Positions 6,624 to 25,720 of a stretch of DNA of 64,000 nucleotides are shown one piece after another. Source of the stretch: an uncultured bacterium (GTDB taxonomy: Bacteria > Planctomycetota > UBA1135 > GCA-002686595); the NCBI GenBank assembly GCA_943787795.1, contig CALSNU010000003.1, forward strand, positions 448,001-512,000. Reading direction: 5' to 3'. The stretch's first letter is position 1; each line of letters begins with the position of its first letter. The notes under the pieces were generated by a model. That model was not told the origin of the DNA. It saw nothing but the letters and a program-made list of their open reading frames with translations, and made no database searches. The position numbers were made by a program, and so were the translations under genes.

Positions 6624-6902
6624 GTTCGGGAGCAACGGAGGGTTAGTTCCGGGGCAGGTCAGGGGCGGCCCACCATCTGGGGCGCCAGCAAGGCGTAGTG
6701 GCGCCCTGCGGCGGCGGTGGCTGGGTCGCAGCCTGAGGGAGGGCAAAAAGGCCGGGTCGAGGACCCCCGCTGCGGTGAGCCCTGACGGATGGGTTGTTCA
6801 GCGCGGGCGTAACTCGCGCTCGTCCCTGAAGTAGAACTGCTGCCACCGTCGCGGCGAGGCGAGCACTCGCGGAGCGGGGCTGTGGTAGAACGGGTAGATC
6901 GC

Positions 6903-7451
6903 ATGAGTGGCTTCAAGAAACTGGGCTCGAAGGGCAACGTGGTGCACCGCGTGGTGCTTCCTGGCCCGACGAGAAGAGCAGGCGCCCGAGGTACCGGACG
7001 CAGCGGGGCGAGCCTGCGACGTCCAACCGCGGAATCGGAGGGCCGTTCCCCCTCGCTGCCGGCGGCGTGGGGACGCGGCAGGCCGGCCCCGCCGGTCAAT
7101 ACGCCGGTTGATGCGCCGGCCCCGGCGGCCGACTCGGCCGCCGCCCCGCGCTCGCCCTCTGAAGCTCGCCAAGGGCAGCGGGAAACCGAACTCCTTCAGC
7201 GGCGGATCGACAAGCTCTCGAAGTTGTTGACCGAACAAGAGGAGGAGATCCGGAGTCTCTCAGGTGCCCGTGGCCCCCGGCGGAGTCCCGAGTTCGATGA
7301 AGGGGCGGATGAAGAAGCGACGCCGGTCTACGACCTCGTGAAGCCGGGCGCGCCTGAGAGCCCGCGAGGCGAGAAGCGGCGCGCCTTCATGTCGAAGTTG
7401 TTCCAGGCCAACCTGGATCTTCGAGAAAGCGTCAACAAGTCGAGAGCCTGA
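6903..7451 (+). CDS. Hypothetical protein: disordered Pro/Ala/Arg linker plus conserved helical C-terminal 'FQANLDL' domain
   Basis: C-terminus aligns with the C-terminus of 14923..15957; lies directly upstream of the MamK-like actin. Confidence 0.75.
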   Translation: MSGFKKLGSKGNVVHRVVLPGPTRRAGARGTGRSGASLRRPTAESEGRSPSLPAAWGRGRPAPPVNTPVDAPAPAADSAAAPRSPSEARQGQRETELLQRRIDKLSKLLTEQEEEIRSLSGARGPRRSPEFDEGADEEATPVYDLVKPGAPESPRGEKRRAFMSKLFQANLDLRESVNKSRA

Positions 7452-7590: not shown

Positions 7591-8659
7591 ATGACGAACA
7601 TTCAGACGGACGCTGCGGACGGGCCGGGCCAGGACCAGGGTGTCCTCTACGTGGGCATCGATCTCGGGACATCCCGCACCTCCGTGACCGCGAGCAACGG
7701 GGTGCGCGAGACCATCGAGTCCTTCGTGGGCTACCCCAAGGACCCGGTGGCCATGAAGCTCCTTAAGAAGGACGTCCTCTTCGGCTCGGAGGCGCGGGGA
7801 GAAGCGCCTCTCGCTCAACCTCCATCGCCCGCTCGAGCACGGCGTCCTCAAGTTCAACGCCGACGGCAGCGAGAACCAGGAGTCGCGGCGGGCGGCCATG
7901 GACCTCGTGAAGGAGATCGTGCGCCTCGCCAAGCCCCGGAAGGACGAGCTGGTGTACGCCGTGATCGGCGTGCCCGCGCAGGCGCAGATCAACAACAAGG
8001 ACGCCATCCTCCAGGCGGCGCGGGAGTCCGTTGACTCCGTGATGCTCTGCTCTGAGCCGTTCTCCGTGGCCTATGGCCTGGACATGCTGGAGGACGTCCT
8101 CGTGATCGACATCGGCGCGGGGACCGTGGACCTCTGCCGGATGCACGGCACCATGCCGGAGGAGTCCGACCAGATCACGATGAACACCGCGGGCGACTTT
8201 GTGGACGAGGAGCTAGGTAAGGAGATCGGGGCCGCCTATCCCCAGGCTCAGTTCACGAAGCAGATGGTCAAGGCCATCAAGGAGCGCCACAGCACGGTCG
8301 ACGCCAACACGGAGAAGATCACCACCGAGCTCCCCGTGGAGGGCAAGCCCACCGCGTTCGATATCACAGAGCAGGTCCGCACCGCGTGCCAGCGCATCGT
8401 GCCGCCCATCGTCGAGGGGCTTGGCAAGCTCATCAGCACGTTCGACCCGGAGTTCCAGGAGCGCCTCAAGAAGCGCGTCCTGCTGGCGGGCGGCGGTAGC
8501 CAGATCCGAGGCCTGGATCGCGCGATCACCGAGGAGATGCAGCGCACCCTCGGCGGCGGCAACGTGATTCGGATCGAAGAGCCCATGTACGGCGGCGCCA
8601 ACGGAGCGCTGAAGATCGCGCACGACATGCCCGAGGAGTACTGGGAGCAGCTGAAGTGA
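7591..8659 (+). CDS. mamK: MamK-like bacterial actin, interrupted by a +1 frameshift in GGGG at 7796-7799
   Basis: VGIDLGTSRT, VGYPKD, AVIGVPA, SEPFSVAYGLD, VIDIGAGTVDLC, LAGGGSQIRGL, GALKIAHDMPEEYWEQL follow MamK closely. Deleting one G gives a continuous 355-aa ORF (EAREKRLSLNLHRPLEHGVL). Confidence 0.85.
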
Positions 8660-9864
8660 GCGACCCCGGAACCCGGGAGCAGCAGGCGGCCGGCGACCCT
8701 CCCGAGGGGCGCCGGCCGTCGCTTCTTCCTCGGTCCATCGCCTCTTGGCTCGTGGCGCTGACGCCTTGGTCCGCGACACTCCTGCTGACGGCCGTCGCGC
8801 GCTCGGCTCCCGAGACCGTCGAGAGCCTCTATTCCCGCGGCCTCTATCCCGGCGTCGCGCAGGCCGTGGCGCAGGCTGCGCACGGCTGGGCAGCGCTCAC
8901 GGGGTCGGAGCTGAGGGGCGGCCCGTTCCTGTCCCTGTCCGAGGCCGGGCTGCTCGCCATGGCCGTGGTCGGGTGCTGGGCCCTGCGGCGTGGGTGGCGC
9001 CAGGGGGGCGCCGGCGCGGTGGCCCGACAGGTGCTCGCGGCGAGCGGCGGCGGCGCCCTTGTGTTCCTGTTGCTGTGGGGACTCAACTACTCGCGCCTCC
9101 CCCTCGCGGTGTCGCTCGAGCTCGAGGCCTCGGGGGTCACGGCCGCGGAGCTGGATCGGGTCGCTGCGGATCTTGAGGCGCAGCTCGCGGTGGACCTTGA
9201 GGGCCTCGACCGCGTCGAGCGCGCGACCGAACCCGCGGCGGCCCTGCGCGCGGCGCGTGACGCGTGGCGCCAGGCCAGCGAGCGGGAGCCATCCCTCGGC
9301 GTCGGCACCGGCGTCCTCGCCGGCGTACTCGCCGGCGTGCTCGTACGGCCCGCGCTGTCAGGCGCCATCGTGAGCGGCGGCATCAGCGGGATCTTCAGTC
9401 CATTCACCCAGGAGGCGCATGTGGCCGGGCATCTCCCAGAGCCTGACTTGCTCTTCACGGCGTGCCACGAGCTTGCCCACGCCCAAGGATGGGCGCGGGA
9501 GGATGAGGCCAACTACCTCGCCTGGCGGGTCGGCAGCCGCGCGGCGGATCACAGCTTGCGGGCGGCGGCGCGGCTGCTGGCGCTGGCGCATGTGCTGGGC
9601 GCCCTGGGGCGCGCGGACCGGGCCGTGCTGGTGGACCGCCTCGAGGGGCTCGACCCGAGGATCCAGGAGGCCCTGGAGGAGCGTGCGCGATTCTGGGACC
9701 GGGAGCGCTCGCCCGCGGCGAGCCGGGCGGCGTCGGCGGTCAACGATGCCTACCTGCGCAGCCAGGGCCAGGACGGCGTGGCGTCCTACGGGCGAATGGT
9801 GGACCTGCTGGTGGCAGAGTGGCGCGCGGCGGGTGGGACGCTTCCTGTGGGAGATCCGCGCTGA
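8656..9864 (+). CDS. DUF3810-family membrane protein with HExxH zincin-like motif
   Basis: LLWGLNYSR, GISGIFSPFTQEA, FTACHELAH, WAREDEANY; GTGA overlap with the actin stop. Confidence 0.82.
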   Translation: MSDPGTREQQAAGDPPEGRRPSLLPRSIASWLVALTPWSATLLLTAVARSAPETVESLYSRGLYPGVAQAVAQAAHGWAALTGSELRGGPFLSLSEAGLLAMAVVGCWALRRGWRQGGAGAVARQVLAASGGGALVFLLLWGLNYSRLPLAVSLELEASGVTAAELDRVAADLEAQLAVDLEGLDRVERATEPAAALRAARDAWRQASEREPSLGVGTGVLAGVLAGVLVRPALSGAIVSGGISGIFSPFTQEAHVAGHLPEPDLLFTACHELAHAQGWAREDEANYLAWRVGSRAADHSLRAAARLLALAHVLGALGRADRAVLVDRLEGLDPRIQEALEERARFWDRERSPAASRAASAVNDAYLRSQGQDGVASYGRMVDLLVAEWRAAGGTLPVGDPR

Positions 9865-9894: not shown

Positions 9895-12800
9895 ATGCCG
9901 AGCCCTCTCCTCGCCGTCCTTCTTGCCGCGTCCGCCACGGCCGCTCCCGCGCTCTCCAAGCCGACCGCCTGCGCTCCGAATCAGGAGGTTTCCGACGAGG
10001 CGCGCCAGGTCCTGTCGCGCATGCAGATCCCCGAGGGGTTCCGGGTCGAGATCTTCGCCAGCGAGCCGATGCTCGCCAATCCGGTGGCGTTCTGCTTCGA
10101 CGTCTTCGGTCGCGTCTACGTGGCGGAGACCTTTCGTCACCACAAGGGCGTCACGGACATTCGGAGCCACATGGGCTGGCTCGAGGACGACCTCGCCATC
10201 AAGACGGTGGAGGACCGGGTCGCGATGTTTCGCAAGCACGAGGGGGAGGACGGGCTGCGGGATGGGTACTCGGTGGAGACCGAGCGGATCACCCGGCTGG
10301 TGGACACGGATGGAGATGGGGTGGCCGACGAGGCCACGGCCTTCGCCGCGGACTTTGCAGACCCTGCCGCAGGGATTGGAGCGGGGCTCCTCGCGCGGCG
10401 GCGGCTGGACGGTGGGACGGAGCTCTGGTTCACCTGCATCCCTGATCTCTGGCGCCTGTTCGACGAGGACGGCGACGGCGTCGCCGAGCGCATGGACCAG
10501 CACAGCACGGGGTACGGCTTGCGTGTCGCGCTCCTCGGCCATGACCTGCACGGACTGGTGATCGGCCCGGACGGCCGGCTGTACTTTTCCATCGGAGACC
10601 GCGGGTTCAATGTGACGACGGACGAGGGCGAGCGGCTCGTCAGGTTCGGGACCGGCGCGGTCTTCCGCTGCGAGCTGGATGGCTCCGGGCTGGAGCTCTT
10701 CTGTGACGGGCTACGGAACCCCCAGGAGCTGGTCTTCGACACGAGCGGGAATCTCTTCACCCTCGACAACAACTCGGACGGCGGCGACAAGGCGCGCTGG
10801 ACCTACCTGCTCAGGGACAGCGACACCGGCTGGCGCCAGGCCTACCAATGGGTGCAGCGGCCGACCGCGCGGGGCCCCTGGAACCAGGAGCGCCTCTGGT
10901 ATCCCTACTTCGAGGGGCAGGCGCTCTACATCCTCCCGCCCATCGCGAACTTCACCAGCGGCCCGTCGGGCATCACGACGTACCCCGGAACCGGCTGGGG
11001 GGAACCGTTGGCACGACACGTTCTTTGTGTGCGACTTCCGCGGGAACCCGGGCTACAGCGGTATCTACTCGTTCCGAAATGCCGCCGAGGGCGCGGGTTT
11101 CCAGTCCGAGGAGGTGGAGAAGTTTGTCTGGGACGTGCTCCCGACCGATGTGGACTTCGGCGTCGACGGCAACCTGTACTTCTCCGACTGGGTGAGCGGC
11201 TGGAACCAGACGGGCAAGGGCCGCATGTTCCGGGTCGTCCCCGAGGTCCGCGACGAGGCCGAGTCCGGCCTCGTCTCGGAGGTCGCCGCCCTCCTGCAAG
11301 GCGGGCTCGATGGGCTCGACGACGCCGCGCTCCTCGCGCTGTTCGAACACCGGGATCGGCGAGTCCGCCAGGAGGCGCAGCTCTTGATGGCGAGCCGCAT
11401 CCTCTCCGCGGGTGACGACGCCGTGGCCGAGGGCAGCCTCACCCGCCTCCTCGAGGTGGTGACAGACCAGGAGGCCCAGGCCCTTCAGCGGGTCCATGCC
11501 CTCTGGTGTGCGGGGCACGTCGGCCGGCTCATGGGGGCGGGCAGCGTCTCAGCCATGCTGCGCTCCGCGTCGCTGGACCAGGCGCTGCTCGCAGCCCTGG
11601 GCGACCCTGACGCCGAGGTGGTGGCGCAGGCCCTGCGCGTGGCCGCAGAGCGCGAAGCGGTGGACTTCCCCAGGGAGGCCCTGGAGCTGTTGAGGGGCCA
11701 CCCTGAGCCCCGGGTCCGGCTGCTGGCCGCCGAGGCCCTGGGGCGGCCGGGGCTGCCCGAGGACCTGGAGGCTGCCGCCTTCGACGAGCTGGTGGACCTC
11801 CTGGAGTCCGAGGGGCCGGGCGACCCCTGGCTACGCACGGCAGCCATCTGTGCCCTGGATCGCATGGGGCCCTCGGCGCCGGTGTCGGCGCTCGCCGATC
11901 ACCCCGCCGACTTCGTCCGTCAGTGCGCCGTCGTGGTGCTCCGGCGGCGCGGCGATCGTCGGATCGCCAGGTTCCTCGCCGATCCCGCGCCCGCCGTACG
12001 GGCGGAGGCCGCCCGTGGAATCCACGACGCGCGGGTGTCGGCGGCCATGGGGGCGTTGTCCGCTGCGCTCCCCAGCCTCGCGGAAGGTGGCGATACCACC
12101 ACGATCCGGCGTTCTCTCCATGCGTGCCGTGAGGTGGCGACCTACGCCAGCGCCTCGCGCCTGCTCGAGTTCGCTTTGGATGAGCGCGCCGATCGGACCC
12201 TTCGGGCCGAGGCTCTCCGGGTGCTGGCGTCGTGGACCCGTCCGCTCACGCGTGACGGGGTGGTCATGGACCACCGCCCGATCCCCGCAGCCGCGGTGGG
12301 CGACCTCCGCCTGGCGGCGACGGACGTGGACGGCGGCGAGGCGCTGGGCAAGCTGACCCGCAGCCCCTCGCTGGCGGACGCCGCGGTGGGGACGGCCCTG
12401 CTCGAGTTGATCGAGAGCCTGGACGACCCAGCGCTCGACGCTGCGGTCCACCTGGCGGCCGTGGCCGGCCAGGCCGACGCGAATGCTGAGGTCCGCCGAC
12501 GTGCGTACCGGATGCTCTTGCGTCGGGCCCCGGAGGCCTCGGTCACTGCGGACCTCACGGCCCGTTCGGCGGTGCAGGCGGGTAGCCCACTCCGCGCGGC
12601 GGCGCTGCTCGAGGTGCACGGCGCCGCCGCGATCTCGATCGTGGCCGAGGAGGCGCGTGACGGGACCGCCGAGCGCAGGGCAGATGCCCTCCGGGTCCTC
12701 GCGGGCTTCCGGGACGACGCCGCCAGCGCGGCGTTCCTCGATGAGGGCGCGCGGCTCAAGGGCGATGACAGCACGCTGCTCGTGGAGTGGTTGCGGTACG

Positions 12801-13333
12801 CCGGTGGAGCCGAGGACGACGCCGTCAAGAGCGCGGCGGCGGCGATGGAGGCGGAGTGGGAGGCGTCCGAGGACCCCCTCGCCCGCTGGCGCATGTGCCT
12901 GGAGGGCGGTGACGCCGAGCGAGGCCGGCGGATCTTCTCGTCCAAGGCCGAGACGAGCTGCATGAAGTGCCATGTGGTGGGCGACGAGGGGGGCTCCGAG
13001 GCCGGTCCGGCCATGGACGACGTGGGCAAGCGGCTCAGCGCCGAGCAGCTCCTCCGTTCGATCGTCGAGCCCAACGCCGAGATCGCTGCGGGCTATGAGA
13101 GCTGGCTGATCATGACCGACGACGGTGAGACGTTCTCCGGGAGGATCCTCGAGGAGGACGCCGAGGTCCTGCTCCTCGAGACGGCCCAGAAGGAGCAGCT
13201 GGAGTTCGAGATCGTCGAGATCAAGGCTCGCCGCCGGGATGTGTCAGCCATGCCCTCGAACGTGGCCTCTCACCTCTCAAGGTCCGAGATGCGCGACCTG
13301 ATCGCGTTCCTCTCCTCTCTCCGCGGCCAGTGA
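9895..13333 (+). CDS. PVC-type heme-binding CxxCH protein (beta-propeller dehydrogenase + HEAT repeats + cytochrome c), +1 frameshift near G6 at 10997-11002
   Basis: Signal peptide; PEGFRVEIFASEP, GPDGRLYFSIGDRG, GLRNPQEL; HEAT-like helices; CMKCH and VSAMP at the C-terminus. The two ORFs join by removing one base (GWGNRWHDTFFVCDFRG). Confidence 0.88.
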
Positions 13334-14922: not shown

Positions 14923-15957
14923 ATGGCCAACCCCGGAACGCTGAGCTTCAATCCGAGCGGCACGCCGCTGTTCACGGACGACGAGGTTCGTTCGCTGATG
15001 CAGATCGAATTTGATCGAGCGCAGCGCTATCGCTATCCGGTGGCCTGCCTGCTGATCGAGATCGACCGGCTCCGGGATATCCAGACCATGCACGGCTTCG
15101 ATGCGCGGCTGACGATCCTCCAGGCGCTGGTCGAGCTGCTGCAGGGCGAGACCCGAGCGGGGGACCTGCTGGGCACCGTGGTCGATGATCGCCTGATGGT
15201 GCTCATCCCGCACACCATGCCCGCCGCCGCACGAGCGATCAGTGAGCGGGTGCTGAGCGGCGCGCGCCAGATGGAGTTCGTCATCGGCGGCAAGTCGATC
15301 CGCGTGACCGCGTCCATTGGCGTAGCGCACAACCAGGACGATGCGGCGAACTCGGTCGCCACCCTGGAGCGCGTGGCCGAGGAGGGCCTCGCCGTCGCCG
15401 TCGGGAATGGCGGGGGTCAGGTCGCCCAGACCGAGCTCTACGAGCTGTACGAGAAGGAGCCGGCGCCAGAGGCCCCCGCCGTAGGTGACGTGGAGGAGCT
15501 GCTCGCCAGGGCCGAGAGCATGGGGTACCGGCAGCGCCTTGAAGGGCTCGTGGCCGGCGGTGCCCCGCTGGAGTCGGCGGCCCAGGAGGTCGCCAACGAG
15601 GTCGTCCAGCGCGCTGTTCAGCAGGAGCGCGAGCGCTGGAGCCGGGATCTCGAGATGGCGAATGCGCGGATCGAGGCCATGTCGACGACGCTCAAGCAGG
15701 GGGGCGATCGTGCAGGTGTGGACCGGGACCTCCAGCAGCTCAATCGGCGCATCGAGAAGCTCACGCGCTCCCTCGAGACCACCGAGGCCGAGATCGCGCG
15801 ACTGCGCGCGGCGGGCTCCACGGACGAGGGGGTGGCCTCGGTCTATCGCGAGGTCCAGGGGCTCGACAGCGACGAGAACCGCGCGGACCTCAAGCGCGAC
15901 CTGATGGGTGCGATCTTCCAGGCCAACCTGGACCTGCAGTCGCGTCGCAGCGCCTGA
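14923..15957 (+). CDS. Degenerate GGDEF-domain protein with coiled coil and C-terminal 'FQANLDL' domain
   Basis: EFDRAQRYRYPVACLLIEID...HGF...RAGDLLGTVVDDRLMVLIP...VTASIGVA follows the GGDEF fold, with GGDEF replaced by VDDRL. Confidence 0.85.
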   Translation: MANPGTLSFNPSGTPLFTDDEVRSLMQIEFDRAQRYRYPVACLLIEIDRLRDIQTMHGFDARLTILQALVELLQGETRAGDLLGTVVDDRLMVLIPHTMPAAARAISERVLSGARQMEFVIGGKSIRVTASIGVAHNQDDAANSVATLERVAEEGLAVAVGNGGGQVAQTELYELYEKEPAPEAPAVGDVEELLARAESMGYRQRLEGLVAGGAPLESAAQEVANEVVQRAVQQERERWSRDLEMANARIEAMSTTLKQGGDRAGVDRDLQQLNRRIEKLTRSLETTEAEIARLRAAGSTDEGVASVYREVQGLDSDENRADLKRDLMGAIFQANLDLQSRRSA

Positions 15958-20713: not shown

Positions 20714-20877
20714 GGGCGGGAGGGTGCCAGAGGGTCGGGTCACGGGGTTCAGAATTCGGCGGTTGGCAAGAAAAGAGCATTGGGGGCAAGGAGCGCCGCT
20801 CGATGGCTGAGGGCAGGGAGCGCGGGTTGAGCAGGTGATGGTTGAGATCGGACCTCGCGGGTTCCTATCGTCGTGCC

Positions 20878-22692
20878 ATGGCGAGCGAGACGACCCAGGC
20901 CGGTCCGGCCGCGCGCGCTGCCGCGGCAGGCGCGCTCGACCCCGGCGCCCTCTTCACGCTGGAGGAGGCGGCGGGTCGGGTGCGCGTTCCCATCGAGGAT
21001 CTCGAGGCCCGCTGCGACCGCGGCGAGCTGCTCTTCGAGACGCGCCGACGGGGCCGCCAGGAGGTGCGCTGCGTCCGAGGTCTTGATCTTGCGGAGGCCT
21101 TCCCCGGCGCCCCCGACCCAGCCCGTTCGTTGGGCAAGGGCCGCTCATCCGGCGGCGCCAGCGTGCCCGATCGACCCAGCCTGGGCGGGGGCGCGGCGGA
21201 CGGGTCGAATCCGCGCGAGCCCTCAGCGGCTTCCCCATCGGCCTCCCCGGTGACTTCCCCGGGGTCCCCTAAAGAGCCCTCTTCAGGTTCTTCTCTAGGG
21301 TCCTCTTCAGCGGGGACTGAGGCGAAGGACAGGGGCGGGGTGGCTGCGGATCCTGGGCGGGTTCAGTCCACTGCCGCTCAGGCCGCTGCGACTCAGGCCG
21401 CTGCGACTCAGGCCGCTGCGACTCAGGCCGCTGCGACTCAGGCCACTGCGACTCAGGCCACTGCGACTCAGGCCACTGCGACTCAGGCCGCTGCGACTCA
21501 GGCCGCTGCGACTCAGGCCACTGCGACTCAGGCCACTGCGACGTTCCCGGCGAGCGGACCTCGAGGCAGCGGACCTCGAGACAGCGGACCTCGAGACAGC
21601 GGAAACAGCGTCGCGGAGGCGGTTCGAGGCTCGGGGGCGAGCCGAGACGCGCTGATCGGGCTGTGCCAGGATCTGGAGACACGCCTGGACCTTGCCGAGC
21701 GAGAGCGTCAGGCGAGCACCGCCTCGTTGCTCATGGCCCAGCGGCACGTCCTCGACCTCGAGCTGCGAGGTCGCTCAGGGTCCTGGGTTCGAGCGGGTGG
21801 CGCCGCGCTGGGGCTCATGTCGGTCTCGGCGCTTGTCGTCATGGCGATGCTCCCCGGCTGGTTGGACGACCGAGCGGCCGGGCGCGAGGCGCTTCAGGGC
21901 GCCCAGCTCACGGCCGAGATCGGTCGGCTGGAAGCCTCCATGGGGTCGCTGGCCGCGGCCTCGGACGAGGAGCGAGCGGCGCTCTCTGCGCAGCTCGAGG
22001 CCCGTACTGCGCAGCTTGCGACCCGTACGGAATCGCTGGTCGCGGAGCGGCGTCTCGCGCTGCAAGCCATGGCGGACGCGGCGGCGGAGCGTGAGCGTGC
22101 GGAGGAGGTCCGGCTCGCGAACATCGAGCAGCTGAACCAGCTCGAGGAGCGGCTCGTGGCCTCCGACCGGCAGGCGGTCCGCCGCAGCGCTGAGCTCGGG
22201 GTCATCGTGGAGTCGAGCGCGCGTGATCGTGCGCGGTTCGACGAGCGCCTCGCCGCAGCGGAACGGTCTGCGGGGGCTGCGCGAGACGCCCTGAGCGAGG
22301 CCAGAGCTCGCTCCGCTGAGGAGCGGCGCCGCTACGAGGATCAGCTCGCCGCCGCGGAGGCGGAGCGTGCCGCCCAGCACGCCGCGCGCGCGGCAGAAGC
22401 CCAGGCGCTCCGGGCCGAGATCCGTGGATTGATGGCCGAGCTTGAGCTGGGTCAGACCCGAGCCGTCGCGGCGTTGGAGGCCGCGGAGGCAAGGCTCCTG
22501 ATCCAGATGGAGGACCGCACCACCTCTGATGGCGGGGTCTTCACGGAGGTCAGCGCCCCTGGCGCGGTCGCAGCGTCCGCCGCGGGGATGCCCCTCCCTG
22601 AGGGTTCAGTTCCCGTCGAGGTATGGGACCTCCCGGAGGCGCCGGCCGGGTCCTGGTGGACCCGGGCCCTTCGCTCGATGGTCGGCCGCTGA
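20878..22692 (+). CDS. Membrane-anchored protein: N-terminal MerR/excisionase-like HTH, repeat linker, TM helix, long coiled coil
   Basis: FTLEEAAGRVRVPIEDLEARCDRGEL; TM GGAALGLMSVSALVVMAML; A/E/R-rich heptads; C-terminal SWWTRALRSMVGR. Confidence 0.7.
   Translation: MASETTQAGPAARAAAAGALDPGALFTLEEAAGRVRVPIEDLEARCDRGELLFETRRRGRQEVRCVRGLDLAEAFPGAPDPARSLGKGRSSGGASVPDRPSLGGGAADGSNPREPSAASPSASPVTSPGSPKEPSSGSSLGSSSAGTEAKDRGGVAADPGRVQSTAAQAAATQAAATQAAATQAAATQATATQATATQATATQAAATQAAATQATATQATATFPASGPRGSGPRDSGPRDSGNSVAEAVRGSGASRDALIGLCQDLETRLDLAERERQASTASLLMAQRHVLDLELRGRSGSWVRAGGAALGLMSVSALVVMAMLPGWLDDRAAGREALQGAQLTAEIGRLEASMGSLAAASDEERAALSAQLEARTAQLATRTESLVAERRLALQAMADAAAERERAEEVRLANIEQLNQLEERLVASDRQAVRRSAELGVIVESSARDRARFDERLAAAERSAGAARDALSEARARSAEERRRYEDQLAAAEAERAAQHAARAAEAQALRAEIRGLMAELELGQTRAVAALEAAEARLLIQMEDRTTSDGGVFTEVSAPGAVAASAAGMPLPEGSVPVEVWDLPEAPAGSWWTRALRSMVGR
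21361..21603 (+). repeat. In-frame 15-nt tandem repeats: about 12x ACTCAGGCCRCTGCG (TQAAA/TQATA), then 3x SGPR(G/D)
   Basis: Ten exact units at 21391-21540 plus two degenerate units upstream; three AGCGGACCTCGAGRC units follow. Confidence 0.95.
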
Positions 22693-24064: not shown

Positions 24065-25720
24065 ATGGCTCAGGAAGAGACAGGCGACCTTGAGGGCGCG
24101 GCAAGCCGCCCCCAGCGCCGCTCCACGTCCCCGGAGGCGGCGTGGGATCCCGAGCAGTGGTGGTCCTTCGGCGAGGCCGCAGATCGGGCAGGCGTGACCC
24201 ATCGGACACTGCAGGGGTGGGCGGAGCGAGGGGAGGTGATGGTCCGGACGGCGTGGCGAGAGGGCACCGAGTTCCGGCTCGTGCGGGCGGGTGACGTCGC
24301 GCGCCTCGCGCCGGAGGCGGCTGGCCTTGTGGGGGAGTCTGCGCCGCTGGAGCAACGGGCCCTCTTCACCGGGCCGAGGCGGTCCGCCCTCGGGGCGGGC
24401 GCGCCGCCATCGCCGCTCAGCCCTGCGGGCGCGCAGCCGGCTCGCTACGACGACGATCGCGATGCCTTCAGGCGCACGGCCGAGCTCGAGATCGTGCGCC
24501 TCAGGGAGGAGCTGAGCTCGCTCCGCCGCCGAGGAGACGCTGGCTCAAGCCGCGCCGCGGCTTCACCGGCGCCCATGGACCTCTGGTCGATCGAGGAGCC
24601 CCGTCGCGCTGGCCTTCAAGGCGGGAGGCCCTGGGGTCCCCGGCGACTGGCCGTCTTCCTGGCCGGGCTGACGCTGGGGCTGAGCGTTGGCGTGGCCTGG
24701 GAGCGTGGTTCGCTCGCGGACCGCGAGCCTCTCGACGCCGCCCAGGGAGAGCCGGCCGGGACACCTGTCTCTCTCGCCGGGCTCACCGGACGGGACGGGC
24801 TCGCGGGACCGGACGGGCTCGCGGGACCGGACGGGCTCGCGGGACCGGACGGGCTCACGGGACCGGACGGGCTGGCGGGCTCCGGTGGTTCGGCTGGCGC
24901 CGCTGAGGCAGCTGGGCCGGCAGGTCCATCCAGCGCATCTGCGCTTGGAGACCCGACGCCTGGAGACCCGACGCTTGGAGACCCGACGCCTGGAGACCCG
25001 ACGCCTGGAGACTCGGTGGCTGGCACGGCCGAACCGGCGGTCGCCGGGCCGATCCGTGCTGCAAGCGTGGCCGCGATCACGGCCCCCAAGCTCGAGAAGG
25101 TCGCCCCTGGGCCAGAGGTCGCCCTTCCCCTCGGGCTGGGCGCGTGGCTCGAAGGGGGGCGCGGCGTGTCCTTCAGCTCACTGGACGGAGCTTCAACGTG
25201 TGCCTTCGGCAGCGGAGACCTCGCGACGCCCGCTTCGCGCTTCGTCCTCGGTAGCTGCTGGGGTGAACTCGCCCCGGGGGGAGCGACGGTCCTCGCGACC
25301 GACCGGGTGGAGGGGGTGGCGTGCTGCAAGCACCACGCGGCGGTCCAGCGCTTGAAGGGCGTCGCTTCGACGCCGCGGGCGCTCGAGGTCGCCATGAAGG
25401 AGGCCGAGCAGGCCGTCAGGGACGGGCTCCTGCCGCCCATGCTCGAGCTCCGGGCCGATCGTTCGGGGCTGCTCCTCGCGCGCGCGCTCACTGGAGGGTG
25501 GCGCGCCTCCGGCTTCGACGGTCCCGTGGCGGAACGCACCCACGTCTGGCGCCTTGCGGACGGACCCGAGGGGACGCCGGATGGCGTTGGGGCGCGGCTT
25601 GAACTCCACAGCTGGGTCGAGCGTGGCCTTGACGGCGCGTATGTACCGTTCCGCCTCGTGCTCGAGCTGGGCGGCAGCACGTCGGGGGATCGGGCCCTTG
25701 AGTTTCAGTGGCTCGAGTGA
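24065..25720 (+). CDS. Second membrane-anchored HTH protein with repeat-rich extracytoplasmic linker
   Basis: WSFGEAADRAGVTHRTLQGWAERGEV; TM LAVFLAGLTLGLSVGVAW; GPDGLA and GDPTP repeats; Cys-containing C-terminal domain. Confidence 0.68.
   Translation: MAQEETGDLEGAASRPQRRSTSPEAAWDPEQWWSFGEAADRAGVTHRTLQGWAERGEVMVRTAWREGTEFRLVRAGDVARLAPEAAGLVGESAPLEQRALFTGPRRSALGAGAPPSPLSPAGAQPARYDDDRDAFRRTAELEIVRLREELSSLRRRGDAGSSRAAASPAPMDLWSIEEPRRAGLQGGRPWGPRRLAVFLAGLTLGLSVGVAWERGSLADREPLDAAQGEPAGTPVSLAGLTGRDGLAGPDGLAGPDGLAGPDGLTGPDGLAGSGGSAGAAEAAGPAGPSSASALGDPTPGDPTLGDPTPGDPTPGDSVAGTAEPAVAGPIRAASVAAITAPKLEKVAPGPEVALPLGLGAWLEGGRGVSFSSLDGASTCAFGSGDLATPASRFVLGSCWGELAPGGATVLATDRVEGVACCKHHAAVQRLKGVASTPRALEVAMKEAEQAVRDGLLPPMLELRADRSGLLLARALTGGWRASGFDGPVAERTHVWRLADGPEGTPDGVGARLELHSWVERGLDGAYVPFRLVLELGGSTSGDRALEFQWLE
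24787..25013 (+). repeat. In-frame tandem repeats: 18-nt (GPDGLA) x5 and 15-nt (GDPTP/GDPTL) x4
   Basis: ccggacgggctcgcggga units from about 24787; ggagacccgacgcyt units from about 24947. Confidence 0.9.

Follow-up and report, generated by a model that had tools for sequence, protein, structure and literature searches.

A MamK-family actin gene and a conserved upstream partner with a predicted actin-binding helix in a planctomycete in which no magnetosome genes were found

The stretch of DNA analysed here (64,000 nucleotides, hereafter the window) comes from a genome of 4.71 Mb in 8 contigs, 85% complete, and contains a MamK-family actin gene lying between a gene for a small protein with the sequence FQANLDL and a gene for a DUF3810 protein (Table 1). 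As originally predicted, the actin gene starts at the ATG at 7591 and ends at the TGA at 8657–8659. A single frame break inside a G run separates an N-terminal piece (7591–7797) from a C-terminal piece (7799–8656), and the two together encode the complete protein.

Table 1. Features of the actin locus and its surroundings (window coordinates).
Feature	Position	Strand	Remarks
Partner gene (FQANLDL protein)	6903..7451	+	182 aa from ATG 6903; in-frame GTG at 6882 too
Unnamed C-terminal domain of the partner, ~80 aa	7167..7448	+	Coiled-coil-like helix, linker, terminal amphipathic helix (alignments A2, A4)
13-residue terminal motif	7386..7424	+	Partner residues 162-174; predicted actin-binding helix
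MamK-family (saltatorellin-type) actin gene	7591..8659	+	355 aa; split in the assembly by one extra base
G run with one surplus base	7796..7799	+	Assembly error; contigs of X3, X6 and X16 lack the base
DUF3810 HExxH protein	8656..9864	+	Pfam PF12725, 175 bits; HELAH motif
GC-rich hairpin	8668..8736	+	Just 3' of the actin stop; -48.4 kcal/mol, z -2.87
Paralogous partner	14923..15957	+	Degenerate GGDEF (VDDRL, with RxxD retained), then a helical region and the C-terminal domain shared with the partner (15697-15954)

The base at 7796 is missing from the contigs of three of four sequencing runs, which belong to three studies (X3 and X6 from DNA, X16 from an RNA library). It is carried by X1 alone, a possible source of this assembly, at a depth of 3.5. 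Moreover, the frame is open at this site in all 10 relatives shown, and piece-by-piece comparison with five relatives gave dN/dS values of 0.02–0.13 for both parts of the gene. The combination of a frameshift confirmed by reads and relaxed selection, named beforehand as an outcome that would count against a working cytoskeletal protein, was thus not what the data gave, and both a pseudogene and a programmed frameshift were ruled out by the runs without the base, the in-frame relatives and the low dN/dS. The gene is intact, and the frameshift is an artefact of the assembly. A second one-base error, at 10997, splits a large gene at 9895–13333 whose product carries a C-terminal CxxCH heme motif. 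As that base is likewise missing from X3, X6 and X16, other frameshifts of this assembly deserve suspicion. The contigs of the RNA library cover parts of the actin and partner genes, but as they extend over further stretches as well (23 of 30 bins), they do not demonstrate transcription.

The MamK-type segments on which the original prediction relied (VGYPKD, SEPFSVAYGLD and MPEEYWEQL) are all present in the repaired protein. Against the NCBIfam MamK model NF040964, the split pieces score 59.8 bits (N-terminal) and 359.1 bits (C-terminal), and the C-terminal piece reaches 174.5 bits with the BeeR model and 58.8 bits with the MreB model. A database protein, P0003, corresponds to the uninterrupted 355-residue form, with one other residue differing from the window, and scores 435.3 bits with NF040964, above the MamK cut-off of 400. 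With the MreB score of 58.8 bits standing against a cut-off of 293, the assignment to the MamK type rather than the MreB type holds. The protein also falls outside BeeR, with 204.9 bits for P0003 against a cut-off of 530, a separate branch in the trees and an N-terminal extension of ~17 residues as compared to 30–50. Its closest solved structure is MamK (5ljw, E 1e-82), and its E155 and D173 align with the catalytic E143 and D161 of MamK. The ATPase residues are 99–100% conserved in an alignment of 80 rows. Mutation of these MamK residues abolishes the ATPase activity and filament dynamics of MamK, according to the available text of PMC5059902. The genome holds one copy of the MamK-like gene and a separate MreB gene at C1:963216 (453 bits). 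By eye, the MreB gene is followed within C1:963126–969782 by ORFs resembling mreC, mreD and PBP2.

Phylogenies were inferred with FastTree from 120 rows, cut down from 335 at 72% identity, plus 8 MreB sequences, and with a quick IQ-TREE run on 50 of these rows from which the long branches L055_5066 and L104 were omitted. In both trees, built from a set without named Nitrospirota, Omnitrophota or planctomycete magnetosome MamK, the magnetotactic MamK proteins formed a branch of their own (support 99) with the window protein outside it. This protein was placed among planctomycete sequences and, in both analyses, outside the MreB branch, a position within which had been named as contrary evidence; BeeR-like proteins and MreB lay further out. 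The base of the IQ-TREE phylogeny did not resolve, and a derivation of MamK from the planctomycete family was dropped as unsupported. Six planctomycete actins (L097–L101 and L103) with ~30% identity to the window protein form another branch. The four of them that were scanned score 350–412 bits on the BeeR model (cut-off 530), and two of the six are preceded by a gene whose product terminates in another short helix motif. The protein at L055:5063-7357, encoded directly downstream of a normal actin copy, starts with a hydrophobic segment, continues with a long linker that is acidic and Thr-rich, and carries behind these a second, highly diverged actin-like domain.

The report of mamK-like genes in Pla133/Poly30-type planctomycetes that had been mentioned originally does exist. 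The available text of bioRxiv 10.1101/817700 describes a class of MamK-like second actins, "saltatorellin", in three shape-shifting isolates; the Poly30 protein forms filaments in Escherichia coli and Magnetospirillum gryphiswaldense, and its role in shape change was offered by the authors, in 2019, as a hypothesis. In the parts available, PMC11032199 mentions saltatorellin once and PMC10653835 does not mention Poly30. The published reverse cloning primer for the Poly30 gene fits the end of the window's actin gene in 20 of 22 bases and binds nowhere else in the genome when up to 4 mismatches are allowed, and the forward primer fits the gene start in 15 of 21 bases, a match that is not unique. 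As far as two published primers can tell, the actin matches Poly30 saltatorellin as a likely ortholog. Named relatives point to Planctomycetota as the phylum of the host. The gene is also widespread. Within the order, 53 of 61 genomes have a copy above the cut-off; across the phylum, sampled evenly with 251 genomes, a MamK-like match at E 1e-45 was found in 92 and missed in 159. Among these 92, two genomes (G187 and G248) have only a BeeR-like match and one (G233) a far diverged sequence. A search of plasmids gave only four matches, of MreB level. The novelty of the actin itself was therefore overrated originally, as it is already named and widespread.

The absence of mam genes noted in the window was extended to the whole assembly, 85% complete, where nothing was found beyond generic CDF, HtrA and TPR proteins. 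The tblastn queries were 18 NCBIfam-confirmed Mam proteins, all proteobacterial, from three of five magnetosome loci recovered from metagenomes. With these queries, MamQ, MamP, MamJ, MamH and MamI had no match in the genome and MamL nothing better than E 0.2. The MamB and MamM queries both hit one generic CDF (27–30%), a single gene on another contig; MamE and MamO hit HtrA domains, and MamA hit TPR fragments. Profile searches agreed: MamB, whose model scores genuine MamB proteins at 347–441 bits, exceeded its cut-off in 0 of 61 relatives, MamM reached 124 bits against 350 and MamA at most 47 against 200, and MamQ gave no match. The magnetochrome domain PF18509 was not matched, and as its control was also silent this result carries no weight. 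A magnetosome island elsewhere in the genome, whose discovery would have spoken for magnetosome function, was accordingly not found by either tblastn or profiles in this 85% complete assembly. Across the phylum, the MamK cut-off is passed in 65 of 251 genomes and a MamB match at E 1e-70 occurs in 0 of 251, by a search without a genome-level positive control; MamK-family matches in Planctomycetota are thus no evidence of magnetotaxis. Magnetotactic Planctomycetota do exist, as stated in the available text of PMC7602337. A contig with two actin-like genes in tandem (G089:C271) showed no recognisable magnetosome genes by eye. In any case, a protein of the MamK family in a genome where no mam genes were found, with no island, no MreB placement and no read-confirmed lesion having come to light, bears out the non-magnetosome cytoskeletal actin that had been proposed.

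The FQANLDL protein, listed originally only as a neighbor, is a real gene with orthologs upstream of actin in relatives, and is a conserved and probably functional part of the locus that had been missed. It consists of a short conserved N-terminus, a low-complexity linker and a conserved C-terminal domain; its central conserved segment is eroded in the source genome. No Pfam or NCBIfam family, and among them no DNA-binding family, matched the partner or the 40 relatives scanned out of 150 listed. The domain occurs in 944 clusters at 50% identity; in the 150 listed it sits at the C-terminal end or close to it. A search of the ESM Atlas with the domain returned generic helical matches only, and an AlphaFold model of the lone domain consists of two helices without a fold (pTM 0.33).

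Of the first 30 relative loci, 28 carry the domain directly upstream of actin; upstream DNA is missing at one of the two others, and at the last the domain is 2.4 kb away. In the sample of 251 genomes it was detected in 67, all of them within the 92 with a MamK-like match, and in 0 of the 159 others. Seventy-one of the 85 domain matches are located at most 1.5 kb upstream on the same strand and account for 70 of 121 actin copies, and a refined profile recovered the domain at 9 of the 51 remaining copies. The partner is upstream of actin at 78 of 80 named-contig loci, and where the actin is duplicated (G023, G031 and G034) each copy keeps its own partner. Within the order it is present in 56 of 61 genomes; neither gene occurs in four small genomes that are 89–91% complete (G039, G041, G051 and G057), and in one fragmented genome there is a divergent actin only, without partner. 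As kin share gene order, none of these co-occurrence counts represents independent events. In any case, the actin and the upstream gene constitute a conserved gene pair. The partner is nevertheless dispensable in some lineages: none of the 10 genomes of family f60 with the actin (L072, L076, L077, L079–L082, L084, L086 and L087) gave a domain match, and this family offers a natural control lineage with actin and no detectable partner.

The terminal motif was first spotted by eye, and the rows used for its profile are independent of those scored with it. Asn170 of the partner is kept in 99% of 80 rows. Of 29 further MamK-type loci without a domain-profile match, 12 have an upstream gene that ends in the motif alone, with a motif-profile score beyond the 99th percentile set by 1899 control ORF ends, and 1 of 8 more distant actins reached this level too; the remaining 17 of the 29 loci lack the short motif as well. 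In family f29 (L056, L058, L062, L063 and L064), the upstream gene ends in 2–3 tandem copies of the motif with low-complexity linkers between them, a layout that resembles tandem-WH2 nucleators.

A complex of P0003 with the window's own partner domain was modelled, each with a matched alignment of 80 rows. The complex score, which is the model's own confidence, was 0.72 (0.69–0.73 in three runs) versus 0.00 for the best of three controls, passing a mark that 116 of 157 solved complexes attained, as did 2 of 215 mismatched pairs, a calibration that is rough with custom alignments. The runs share at least 71% of their contacts, and the pLDDT of the partner is at least 64. The contacts with the lowest error involve M163, L166, F167, A169, N170, L171 and L173 of the partner, which are conserved motif residues, and positions 151–153, Y161, 136/140 and 342–354 of the actin. 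In what we take to be the register with eukaryotic actin, Y161, 186–188 and 342–350 line the groove between subdomains IA and IIA, and the last helix of the partner is predicted by the model to dock on this groove. The same groove is described in the available part of PMC5173319 as a hot spot for arcadin-2, ParR, WH2 and thymosin. As helix-in-groove complexes of other actins have been solved, the success of the model may partly reflect likeness to them. Within the predicted site, I133 and D137 align with E149 and E153 of BeeR, which are cross-strand contacts of that protein's filament (PMC11929497, available text), so that a helix bound there could block filament contacts. Interface residues of the actin are hardly better conserved than its other residues (0.76 versus 0.70). 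The corresponding values are 0.53 versus 0.57 in partner-less actins and 0.39 versus 0.44 in magnetotactic ones, with no clear difference, so that conservation lends the model no independent support, and no co-variation signal was detected at the predicted interface.

Three proteins with the partner domain accompany the single actin in the source genome (genes at 6903, 14923 and C1:810155), and members of family f1 have 2–5 copies; two of the three genes in the source genome are not adjacent to actin. The domain of the 14923 paralog was recognised by profile, and its GGDEF domain by Pfam at 49 bits. Judged by its sequence, this paralog is devoid of the diguanylate cyclase active site GG[DE]EF, a sequence kept in 0 of 86 GGDEF-type partner proteins. 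RxxD is retained in 56 of the 86, and this pattern of loss and retention makes sensing of c-di-GMP plausible. In ~11 genomes of family f1 the partner gene is followed, 7–9 kb downstream and without a change of contig or strand, by a second domain gene, so that the two adaptors stayed linked. The third domain protein (C1:810155-811687) is unlinked to actin, and by eye its N-terminal part is like that of a partner type encoded in other families between a kinase-like ATPase and actin. In a motif search, a tyrosine-kinase-like ATPase was located at most 3.5 kb upstream of actin in 26 of 172 loci. The source genome encodes a stand-alone soluble tyrosine-kinase-like P-loop ATPase at C4:208772-209596, which is unlinked to actin and shares up to 49% identity with the ATPases encoded two genes upstream of actin at such loci.

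Downstream of actin, the DUF3810 HExxH protein proposed as a translationally coupled neighbor is real, but its coupling is not established, as the 4-base overlap with the actin gene is present in only 5 of 10 aligned sequences, namely the window and its four closest relatives. A DUF3810 gene follows actin in 19 of 174 loci (some of them duplicates), all with at least 79% actin identity, and was rejected as part of the module, being probably a lineage-specific neighbor in close relatives only. Comparison of gene order in relatives, suggested along with the original prediction, therefore left a conserved upstream partner and a DUF3810 gene confined to close relatives. The hairpin that follows the actin stop was equalled by 1 of 200 shuffles and was not called a terminator by a consensus scan; scans of promoters and terminators gave nothing above chance. 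Further downstream, the ORF list contains two proteins (20842-22692 and 24065-25720) that begin with a similar short helix-turn-helix-like segment, are rich in repeats in their middle parts and end in helical or membrane-associated regions.

Taken together, we consider it reasonably probable that this saltatorellin-branch actin works without magnetosomes, under the control of upstream adaptors, and likely remodels cell shape or inner membranes. The actin would be a functional ATP-dependent filament protein of a chromosomally encoded cytoskeleton independent of magnetosomes, and its control would lie with a dedicated family of adaptors whose genes are located directly upstream. In the complex model, the terminal amphipathic helix of the adaptor is predicted to bind the face of subdomain IA and the hydrophobic IA/IIA groove, which would be the site used by ParR, arcadin-2 and WH2 peptides on their actins, and the preceding helix probably oligomerises the adaptor. 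Swappable N-terminal modules (low-complexity, degenerate GGDEF or long helical) may set the place and time of filament anchoring, capping and turnover, with c-di-GMP as a conceivable input. The most likely output would be the remodelling of cell shape and inner membranes in a cell without FtsZ; tubulin/FtsZ searches gave no match in the genome, with 13 of 14 controls positive.

The filament could instead act as a MamK-style track that places or segregates internal cargo, with the adaptors serving as MamJ-like tethers and not as regulators of shape. MamK, the closest characterised relative, positions organelles by treadmilling (PMC5059902, available text), the actin shares 38–46% identity with magnetotactic MamK, and three adaptors with different N-termini on one actin would suit several cargoes. 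However, no conserved transmembrane or cargo gene accompanies the pair, and the domain profile is silent in MamJ and in the rest of five magnetosome loci, so we regard this reading as unlikely, though it is the strongest of the competitors. A division or chromosome-segregation machinery independent of FtsZ, of ParM/ParR type and recruited to the chromosome like FcmBC, would fit a genome without an FtsZ match, the ParMR/FcmBC layout of an actin beside a small helical neighbor (PMC12645912) and the near universality of the actin in the order (53 of 61). It appears improbable given the lack of an actin match at E 1e-45 in 159 of 251 genomes, including four of the same order that are 89–91% complete, and of any DNA-binding family in the partner or 40 relatives.

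That the upstream protein does not bind a real, non-magnetosomal actin, the genes being merely co-regulated, is less probable still. The partner-less family f60, the absent interface co-variation and the two domain genes of the source genome that lie away from actin are what such co-regulation would lead one to expect; yet the domain was never seen without a MamK-like match in the 251-genome sample, its motif persists alone and in tandem repeats upstream of actin, and the modelled complex stood up to its controls. Already largely refuted and hardly credible is the reading as a true magnetosome mamK with an island that the assembly lacks, or as a decaying remnant or pseudogene. In its favor, the NCBIfam cut-off is passed, the genome is 85% complete, magnetotactic Planctomycetota are known (PMC7602337, in the part available), proteobacterial proteins served as Mam queries, and no positive control at genome level backed the genome searches for MamB and magnetochrome. 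Against it, MamB exceeds its cut-off in 0 of 61 relatives with a lone generic CDF on another contig, the magnetotactic MamK branch (99) excludes the protein, the frame break is an assembly artefact, and the gene is under strong selection.

The favored reading, adaptor-controlled remodelling of the cell, can be extended to the phylum as a proposal that we see as possible but doubtful. About one third of Planctomycetota would have a eukaryote-like hub-and-adaptor actin cytoskeleton in which modular proteins with WH2-like helices drive shape change; magnetosome MamK would be a specialised offshoot, and the adaptors would include dead-GGDEF readers of c-di-GMP, tandem-helix nucleators and forms linked to the tyrosine-kinase-like ATPase. 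To our knowledge, saltatorellin is the only candidate for explaining shape change, crawling, budding and fusion in planctomycetes without FtsZ, and it has no known interactor. The 13-residue motif and its predicted site provide a concrete handle on cytoskeleton control in non-magnetic planctomycetes, and if the proposal is true it would define a new bacterial family of groove-binding actin regulators with a possible c-di-GMP link to the cytoskeleton. In the literature searched, subscription papers excepted, we found no description of a saltatorellin partner or of a MamK adaptor with GGDEF or c-di-GMP, and nothing on MamK with a cleft, an amphipathic helix and MamJ. The actin is already known, and the adaptor family and its model-predicted binding mode were not found in that literature.

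Of the systems already described, the saltatorellin present in Saltatorellus ferox Poly30 and its relatives is alike in being, according to the available text, a MamK-like second actin beside MreB in the absence of magnetosome genes. That text names no partner, gene context or range beyond three isolates, although Fig. S6 and Table S4 of the paper may list more; compared with saltatorellin as described there, the actin studied here occurs across numerous families of the phylum, with a conserved domain encoded upstream of it. MamK (5ljw, 5ljv and 5jyg; NF040964) with MamJ is similar in its 38–46% identity, in the catalytic Glu and Asp and in an adaptor gene directly upstream. In contrast, the window's actin lies on a separate branch, no mam genes were found with it, and its adaptor is unrelated to MamJ by HMM. 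BeeR of Verrucomicrobiota (8r2n) is likewise a MamK-related actin of non-magnetotactic PVC bacteria, with its function described as unknown in the available text of PMC11929497, but the actin of the window scores 205 bits against 530, the BeeR-like proteins have their own branch, and the N-terminal extension here is ~17 residues.

The closest parallels for the predicted complex are arcadin-2 with crenactin, ParR with ParM, WH2 and thymosin beta-4 (PMC5173319, available text), and FcmC with FcmB (PMC12645912); in the locus studied here, the C-terminal helix of a neighboring gene's product is likewise predicted at the groove of its actin. Unlike these groove binders, to which no sequence relationship was found by Pfam, the partner is placed at the groove by a model. 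It differs from them also in the N-terminal modules of its family, which include a degenerate GGDEF domain, and in the 2–3 tandem motifs of family f29.
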